Source: a virus
Lineage: Duplodnaviria > Heunggongvirae > Uroviricota > Caudoviricetes
Strand: one strand, 5' to 3'
DNA length: 7,614 nt
IMG/VR virus record: IMGVR_UViG_2585427735_000018
Span: 1-7,614 of that record
Shown here: piece by piece, positions 1,633-2,081 of the stretch
Position numbering within the stretch: position 1 is the first letter of the stretch
How the letters are laid out: every line of letters begins with the position of its first letter
Translations under genes and position numbers: made by a program
Notes under the pieces: generated by a model
Database searches by the model: none
What the model was told of the DNA's origin: nothing
Seen by the model: the letters and a program-made list of their open reading frames with translations, nothing else

Positions 1633-1775
1633 GTCCCCTCCCCTCATCACACAAACCGTTCGAAAAACCACCACAACCTCCCTTCAGTTATCGCTATGCG
1701 ATGCAAGTCACAAAATTAATTCTTTTTGCTATCAAACAGTTAATATCAAAACACATCAATCAATAGCAATAAGTA

Positions 1776-1804
1776 TTGATACCACCAATAGCAATAGCTA
1801 TTAT
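1776..1804 (+). promoter_or_regulatory. Candidate sigma70 early promoter with overlapping operator-like repeats (pL/oL-equivalent)
   Basis: TTGATA (1776-1781), 17-bp spacer, TATTAT (1799-1804). An 11-bp direct repeat CAATAGCAATA sits at 1761-1771 and 1786-1796, and a perfect 10-bp palindrome AATAGCTATT (1793-1802) overlaps the -10. It faces the early gene block. Confidence 0.4.
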
Positions 1805-2081
1805 TACCATGTCGCAACAACACAACGATACGGCAACCGCCTGATTCACCGTTGCGATGACCGCTTAGATCCGCAGCTTGAATTTCGGCAGGCTCCGGGG
1901 AGTGCGAGGGGTGAAACGGACGCGTGAACGTCGGTGTAACCAGCTGAAATCAACTCAACACCTCATACCTCAGTCGCTTCAACGAGGCGGCTTAGTTATG
2001 ACAACCGGCGGCCATCCACCGCCTGAATACGCGCAGAAGTCTCTATATGTTCAGCAGCCCAGCTTACGGGCAGGAGTTTTT

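Follow-up and report, generated by a model that had tools for sequence, protein, structure and literature searches.

A predicted pL/oL promoter-operator module of ST104/BTP1-type immunity in the left arm of a decaying lambdoid prophage

Does the A+T-rich segment in front of the early genes of a decaying lambdoid prophage act as a repressor-controlled promoter and, if so, to which class of repressor would it answer? The window that we analyzed, a 7,614-nt stretch of DNA, is the left arm of such a prophage, and the segment in question is a 95-bp cassette (1717–1811) with a G+C content of 27%. We consider it very probable that this cassette constitutes the pL/oL module, with the early leftward promoter and its operators, of a lambdoid prophage with ST104/BTP1-type immunity. 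A repressor-controlled pL had been proposed at this position in an earlier, sequence-only reading, and the proposal is supported by synteny, by operator words shared with oR, and by co-variation of the cassette with the DNA-binding domain of the repressor.

The window opens within an IS1 element, the right part of which (1–563, + strand, cut by the window start) is inserted in a kinase gene; matches to complete E. coli genomes lacking this IS1 begin at 564, and a transposase is annotated under matches to 505–590. The interrupted gene is a 5′-truncated Ser/Thr-kinase “moron” (602–1438, + strand) that matches the Pfam Pkinase profile over positions 65–253, as compared to 9–253 in the intact copy. 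The ORF thus lacks the opening part of the protein-kinase domain, approximately 64 profile positions, and an active kinase is very improbable. A 54-aa ORF of unknown function (1441–1605, + strand; PHROG 4063, E = 3e-38) is the last gene of the immunity operon, and an intrinsic terminator detected in the terminator scan (1604–1625, + strand; an 8-bp stem with six GC pairs and a T run) closes the operon of cI and its cargo. This terminator is also the left edge of the block that is conserved among phages with different cargo genes. Beyond the cassette, the first gene of the operon is kil (2082–2288, + strand), encoding a KilR-type inhibitor of FtsZ and thus of cell division (PHROG 294, E = 1e-37, and sibling annotation; the match to the NCBIfam FtsZ inhibitor family, E = 2e-17, is below the curated cut-off). 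It is followed on the same strand by gam (2364–2660), bet (2666–3451), and exo (3448–4128), all assigned from sibling annotation, and farther downstream by xis and a frameshifted lambda-type int. In intact relatives, cro and cI diverge from oR, and cI is followed in turn by one or two cargo genes, the terminator, the cassette and kil-gam-bet-exo. This gene order places the cassette in the canonical pL/oL slot, with the kinase replacing lambda rexAB; in intact prophages the kinase gene indeed lies downstream of cI at the rexAB position, a layout seen in the intact sibling locus L010.

The region around the cassette is widely distributed. Free coliphages, including the Bievrevirus members 4A7 and 4C10 and their relatives Perceval, PhiR30_1, 1W, 3W, and D2, are approximately 97% identical to the window over 1606–2360 and have the same repressor DNA-binding domain. 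They differ from the prophage studied here in their cargo between cI and the terminator, in their integration modules and in being intact, and no annotation marks their pL/oL either. The segment is also found, 99.8% identical and free of the IS1, in many E. coli chromosomes; between 1600 and 2100, the window and the intact prophage of E. coli 2012C-4502 differ by one base (1938). The cassette was found in 268 of 5,426 complete E. coli genomes (approximately 5%), where it is unannotated. It is present as a single copy in each carrier, which fits the expectation for an immunity determinant.

Within the cassette, the sigma-70 hexamer pair TTGATA-17-TATTAT (1776–1804) is the best-scoring + strand match of the promoter scan in the window (10/12). 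The −35 (TTGATA, 1776–1781) and −10 (TATTAT, 1799–1804) are located, and face the early genes, as the sequence-only reading had described. Promoter-like hexamer pairs number 14 in the whole window, compared to 13.0 expected in shuffles; thus, the hexamers by themselves prove nothing, and the pL call leans on context. The −35 is invariant in the homo-immune phages of E. coli and Salmonella and aligns with TTGACG in the cassette of hetero-immune phages, and the same −10 is found at pR of the siblings. From the usual 7-nt distance, transcription is predicted to start at approximately 1811–1812, a position that coincides with the right edge (1811) of the cassette.

The short repeats that had first drawn attention to this promoter are all present in the sequence, although not all have the role that was proposed for them. 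The 11-bp direct repeat CAATAGCAATA has just two copies in the window, at 1761 and 1786, but it is merely the left part of two 16-bp operators, and the repetition extends further than first noted, to 24 nt (1761–1784 and 1786–1809, 83% identical) with a 25-bp period. The palindrome AATAGCTATT at 1793 likewise exists, as a single occurrence in the window, but is an accidental by-product of its surroundings, its axis being displaced by 3 bp from the dyad of oL1. ATCAAA (1731 and 1745), ATCAAT (1755 and 1759), and ATTGAT (1775) are each found at the positions reported, but the suggestion that they are half-sites did not hold up, the conserved recognition words being other ones.

The operator unit is predicted to be a 16-bp near-palindrome, AATA(G/C)(C/G)nA-nnn(G/C)GTATT. 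To score it we used a 16-bp weight matrix trained on five distinct oR sites from the cI-cro region of other phages, with no window or oL sequence included. The three highest scores of this matrix across the 7.6-kb window fall at 1762, 1787, and 1718, all within the cassette. The best match, putative operator oL2 (1762–1777, AATAGCAATAAGTATT), scores 21.2 bits and overlaps at its end with the first two bases of the −35; the second, putative operator oL1 (1787–1802, AATAGCAATAGCTATT), scores 13.5 bits and overlaps at its end with the first four bases of the −10. The third match is a candidate distal operator, oL3 (1718–1733, AATTCTTTTTGCTATC, reverse complement GATAGCAAAAAGAATT), which scores 12.4 bits and lies 44 bp upstream of oL2. 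It is the weakest assignment among the three candidate sites; its position is the same in BTP1, ST104, and SE1. Across 300 Markov-shuffled versions of the window, the matrix maximum averaged 10.5 bits (sd 2.0, highest 17.1), such that the oL2 score was reached by no shuffle, and approximately 9% of the shuffled windows reach the oL1 score somewhere. Three such sites were found in none of 20,000 shuffles with the local A+T-rich composition, and when the matrix was applied to the hetero-immune phages and HK022 nothing scored above 11.4 bits. A fourth oL site spotted by eye at 1742–1757 (AATATCAAAACACATC, 20 bp from oL2) was rejected, as it scores less than 7.4 bits and is outside the ten best matrix matches.

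The same words and the same geometry are found at the other end of the immunity region. The oR of intact relatives consists of three 16-bp near-palindromes (AATAGCAATGCGTATT, AATAGCAAAACGTGTT, and AATACGCAAGCGTATA) at an exact 25-bp period, an arrangement seen in loci L001, L002, L004, L008, L009, and L010, and the distance between oL1 and oL2 equals this period. In every homo-immune relative, the operator words occur three times in the cI-cro region and nowhere else in 5–11 kb of flanking sequence. The geometry of pL is identical to that of the siblings’ pR: the promoter-proximal operator ends in TATT, the start of the −10 TATTAT, and the operator 25 bp farther upstream in TT, the start of the −35 (TTGATA at pL and TTGnTt at pR). 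In the siblings, the third oR site overlaps a further promoter, TTGACC-17-TAAATT, which ends 7 nt before the ATG of cI; the cI mRNA is therefore probably leaderless, as at lambda pRM. The coliphage oR also has, between the −10 of pR and the start of cro, a weaker fourth word of operator-like type (AATACCAATAGGAATT, 12.3 bits), located at 2701–2716 in L001, at 2717 in L002, and at the equivalent position in L010; its right half, GAATT, resembles the candidate oL3 (1718–1733).

Two siblings of different immunity, PhiR47_2 and Turner, show how the cassette is exchanged. These phages are 94–95% identical to the window in the left flank (1606–1716) and 96–98% identical in the right flank (1812–2085), compared to only 41–42% across the cassette itself (1717–1811), which therefore stands out as an immunity-specific mosaic segment. 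In both phages, the cassette and the DNA-binding domain at the N terminus of cI have been exchanged together, as have the oR words. Their own oR word, AAAACTATGGTTGTTTT, recurs in their own cassette (the best non-oR match, 15 bits) and is absent from the window in the reciprocal matrix test, and the −35 and −10 are in register between the two types of cassette. Operator words change when, and only when, the HTH domain of the repressor changes. This swap pattern is the one expected if 1717–1811 comprised a promoter and a repressor-recognition module, with the transcribed part shared between immunity types.

Outside the coliphage group, homology detected by blastn is confined to 1712–1805, and the targets are the Salmonella P22-like phages BTP1, ST104, SE1, and ST160 (77–80% identical). 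These four phages have a homologous pL/oL cassette, with the same operator words and geometry at both oL and oR. Both alignment and matrix scoring indicate that the words AATAGCAAnnnGTATT at the window’s oL are homologous to those at oL of ST104, BTP1, and SE1. The repressors agree with this assignment: cI of 4A7 is 85% identical to cI of BTP1, with an identical HTH stretch (Cro is 69% identical), and the N-terminal 70 aa of the sibling repressor are 90% identical to the Salmonella group. The cassette of L010 is identical to that of the window, and its cI (WP_000712397) is 99% identical to cI of 4A7. The predicted immunity specificity of the window is thus the ST104/BTP1 type, neither lambda nor HK022, where the type of repressor domain is read from cI of the siblings, the window itself being without a repressor gene. 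The words, the 25-bp phase and the overlap with the −10 and −35 are thus kept from E. coli to Salmonella phages.

The sequence-only reading had judged the region to be unlike lambda oL and had suggested a different immunity specificity, and our comparison with the operator regions of other phages agrees. The judgment is correct because lambda half-sites are absent and HK022 operators are unrelated: no lambda 17-bp TATCACCGC-type half-sites occur in 1700–1870, the only match in the window with one mismatch or fewer being inside the IS1, and HK022-like immunity was rejected since the HK022 operators are of the TGAACTTATGGTTCA type and consist of unrelated words. A repressor DNA-binding domain at least 87% identical is found only in about 10 coliphage and about 15 Salmonella records and in one Klebsiella phage, among which there is no classically characterized operator system. 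The ST104 repressor was classed as a distinct, unstudied specificity type by Casjens and co-workers (PMC2629481), and BTP1 has the ST104 immunity region in common (PMC5322425). The cI of BTP1 is a prophage repressor with high expression in lysogens, co-transcribed with the moron downstream of it (PMC7067206). In the literature searched, we found no footprint, EMSA, reporter, mapped 5′ end or experimental operator map for ST104/BTP1-type immunity.

The repressor of the intact relatives combines HTH_3 and Peptidase_S24 domains, and two sibling prophages, 4C10 and 4A7, respond to RecA-activating bacteriocins by induction (bioRxiv 10.64898/2026.05.26.727859). Given these two observations, a lambda-type mechanism is the most likely one; repressor binding and its cooperativity, the transcription start and control by the SOS response are inferred for pL. 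In a lysogen, dimers of the prophage repressor (HTH plus S24 autopeptidase) would bind oL1 (1787–1802) and oL2 (1762–1777), the 25-bp spacing probably permitting cooperative binding, with a weaker distal site at 1718–1733. The bound repressor would cover the −10 and abut the −35, and thereby shut off pL. Upon DNA damage, RecA-stimulated self-cleavage of the repressor would release pL, and transcription from approximately 1811 would then proceed through a 270-nt leader into kil, gam, bet, and exo and on toward xis and int. The Cro-like protein would be expected to act at the same operator sites. The predicted arrangement is that of a lambda-type switch in every respect that can be read from the sequence.

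Could the segment instead be an A+T-rich spacer in which promoter-like hexamers and short repeats arose by chance, with no regulatory role? The near-chance count of promoter-like pairs (14 compared to 13.0 in shuffles) would be compatible with this, as would the 27% G+C of the segment, in which such words arise easily. However, a matrix derived independently from oR matches the segment three times, which none of the 20,000 local-composition shuffles did; the words, their 25-bp phase and the −10/−35 overlap are conserved from E. coli to Salmonella phages; and exchange affects the segment as a whole, along with the repressor DNA-binding domain. We therefore regard a chance origin as scarcely credible. 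Marginally less remote, although still very improbable, is that the promoter is constitutive and that the repeats bind a protein other than cI, such as a replication or partition protein recognizing iterons or a host nucleoid protein. Direct repeats with a regular 25-bp period do look superficially iteron-like, but every homo-immune relative has three copies of the same words in its cI-cro region and none in the 5–11 kb flanks, they change only when the HTH domain of the repressor does, and the replication genes O and P are located elsewhere.

A more serious alternative, which we consider unlikely but would not dismiss, accepts a genuine pL/oL and holds that it is an orphan here: the IS1 event would have removed cI, leaving the promoter either constitutive or silenced in trans by a homo-immune repressor. 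The earlier expectation that the repressor gene lies upstream holds by synteny in the intact phage, where cI is approximately 2 kb upstream (in L010 it ends approximately 1.9 kb upstream of the −35). A repressor beyond the IS1 is accordingly what synteny predicts for the window as well; however, the IS1 could have deleted the gene. Deletion would be in keeping with the truncation of the upstream kinase gene by IS1, with the frameshifted integrase, which points to a decaying prophage, and with the absence of the IS1 junction from all searched genomes: an exact 38-nt search of species-representative genomes gave no match, and BLAST against the 5,426 complete E. coli genomes did not find it. On the other hand, the insertion may be simple and recent, and the promoter, operators and toxic kil are intact, the region from 1600 to 2100 being one base off an intact prophage. 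By analogy with Rac kilR and lambda kil, an unrepressed kil would normally be counter-selected, and the fact that all of these are intact thus weakly suggests that repression is still needed. In the defective prophage, the pL module may be unregulated or regulated in trans.

We then considered the predicted untranslated leader of the pL transcript (1812–2081, + strand), which is 270 nt in length and 96–98% identical across immunity types. Coding alternatives in this region were rejected. A + strand ORF at 1616–1927 and the minus-strand ORFs of the PhiR30_1 and Turner annotations extend over both the terminator and the swapped cassette, and phages of different immunity type do not keep them; an 11-codon ORF from the ATG at 1809 loses that ATG in PhiR30_1. 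None of the sibling annotations places an N-like gene in the interval from pL to kil, and boxA (CGCTCTTTA, one mismatch or fewer) is found nowhere in the window. No Rfam family was detected anywhere in the window at E ≤ 1, and the minimum free energy of 1811–2082 is no better than that of shuffles (z = 0.27). A resemblance between CGGGGAGTGCGAGGGGT and CGGGAGCGCGGCGGGT, noticed by eye, had raised the possibility of an HK022-type put RNA in the leader. This candidate was rejected using a put RNA covariance model built from seven putL sequences from five host genera, with clear compensatory changes in the alignment. The model recovers HK022 putR, which was outside the training set, at 37 bits as a positive control, and finds no match in the window at E ≤ 10 and none in the pL leader of any sibling locus; its few weak matches in the sibling loci (E ≥ 0.7) are all outside the pL leader.

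Terminator-like hairpins are nevertheless present downstream on the + strand (4784–4802 and 6297–6316), between pL and xis/int. A cis-acting role for the leader might be considered in view of the lack of N, nut or HK022-type put RNA despite these hairpins, together with the 96–98% conservation, which holds even between hetero-immune phages. As a probable pL/oL, the locus itself is ordinary and adds nothing in concept to the lambda paradigm, and the leader is the only part of it with potential for novelty. There is a small chance that the leader (1812–2081) represents a new cis-acting element controlling elongation, termination or kil translation or that, as a lesser novelty, the 16-bp ST104/BTP1 operator code was previously undescribed. 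Separately, the part of the leader just upstream of kil (1963–2023) is 85–97% conserved before kil in HK225, phi80 (X13065), and Enterobacter and Klebsiella phages with no further relation to the window, and this segment may be a kil-linked regulatory element.

The resemblance to lambda is close in layout. Lambda pL/oL has the same position, after the operon of cI and its morons with its terminator and before the early-left recombination genes, and there too multiple partly palindromic operators approximately 2.4 helical turns apart overlap the −10 and −35. In lambda, likewise, the same words recur in an oR of three parts that separates the divergent cI and cro, and the repressor is an SOS-inducible HTH plus S24 protein. 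The differences lie in the operator words themselves (17-bp TATCACCGC-type operators in lambda, compared to the predicted 16-bp AATA(G/C)(C/G)nA...GTATT here), in the region after pL, where lambda has N and nut whereas this phage group has neither and begins with kil, and in the positions of lambda Cro and CII, which are filled in this group by YdaS- and YdaT-family proteins. The L010 genes at the cro/cII position (2193–2990) are YdaS (Cro-like) and YdaT family members, which is also the case in the Rac and CP-933P switches. With only 30 bp between them, there is no room for a nutR or putR element.

Compared to the Salmonella phages of the ST104/BTP1 group, the coliphage arrangement diverges outside the operators. 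In the Salmonella phages, pL is followed by an N-like gene (gene 24) and by a nut site with boxA and boxB, neither the gene nor the site being present here; their −10 is TATTGT instead of TATTAT; and they have a P22-type virion module, whereas the prophage studied here is of a lambda-like siphovirus type with lambda-type int and xis. In common with the coliphages, they have a moron slot downstream of cI, which in BTP1 holds bstA. The pL-putL region of HK022 resembles that of the window in having an N-less early-left operon and a non-coding leader running from the promoter, but its operator words are unrelated and its put RNA is not found here.

Overall, the analysis provides a concrete predicted operator code for the ST104/BTP1 type, comprising 16-bp sites, 25-bp phasing, three oR sites and two to three oL sites. 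This immunity type is common to the epidemic-associated Salmonella prophage BTP1, ST104-like phages and approximately 5% of complete E. coli genomes, and annotators could use the code to mark pL/oL in genomes where the region is now blank. For the defective prophage itself, it draws attention to an intact promoter in front of a gene for a cell-division inhibitor in an element that may have lost its repressor.

Several observations concern other parts of the prophage. Between cI and the conserved terminator lies a hot spot for varied cargo or defense genes, with the Ser/Thr kinase and the PHROG 4063 ORF in the window, ASCH-domain genes in 4A7, GevT/GevA in PhiR47_2, BstA in BTP1, and a DUF3024 gene and a ParA-like gene in SE1. 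It occupies 564–1605 of the window and the corresponding positions 3580–4996 in L001, 3645–4999 in L002, 1779–2702 in L004, 1984–3412 in L006, and 1646–3199 in L009. The lambda-type integrase is split into ORFs at 6543–6881 and 6922–7614, with a frameshift near 6865–6880, and the downstream frame reads ...RRGLPDAPLEDITTKEIAAMLNGY...; given this frameshift, the prophage is probably unable to excise by itself. A 200-aa minus-strand ORF (5294–5896) that looks like another moron lies in the low-G+C DNA separating the early-left genes from xis/int, with terminator-like hairpins on either side (5236–5259 and 6069–6116).
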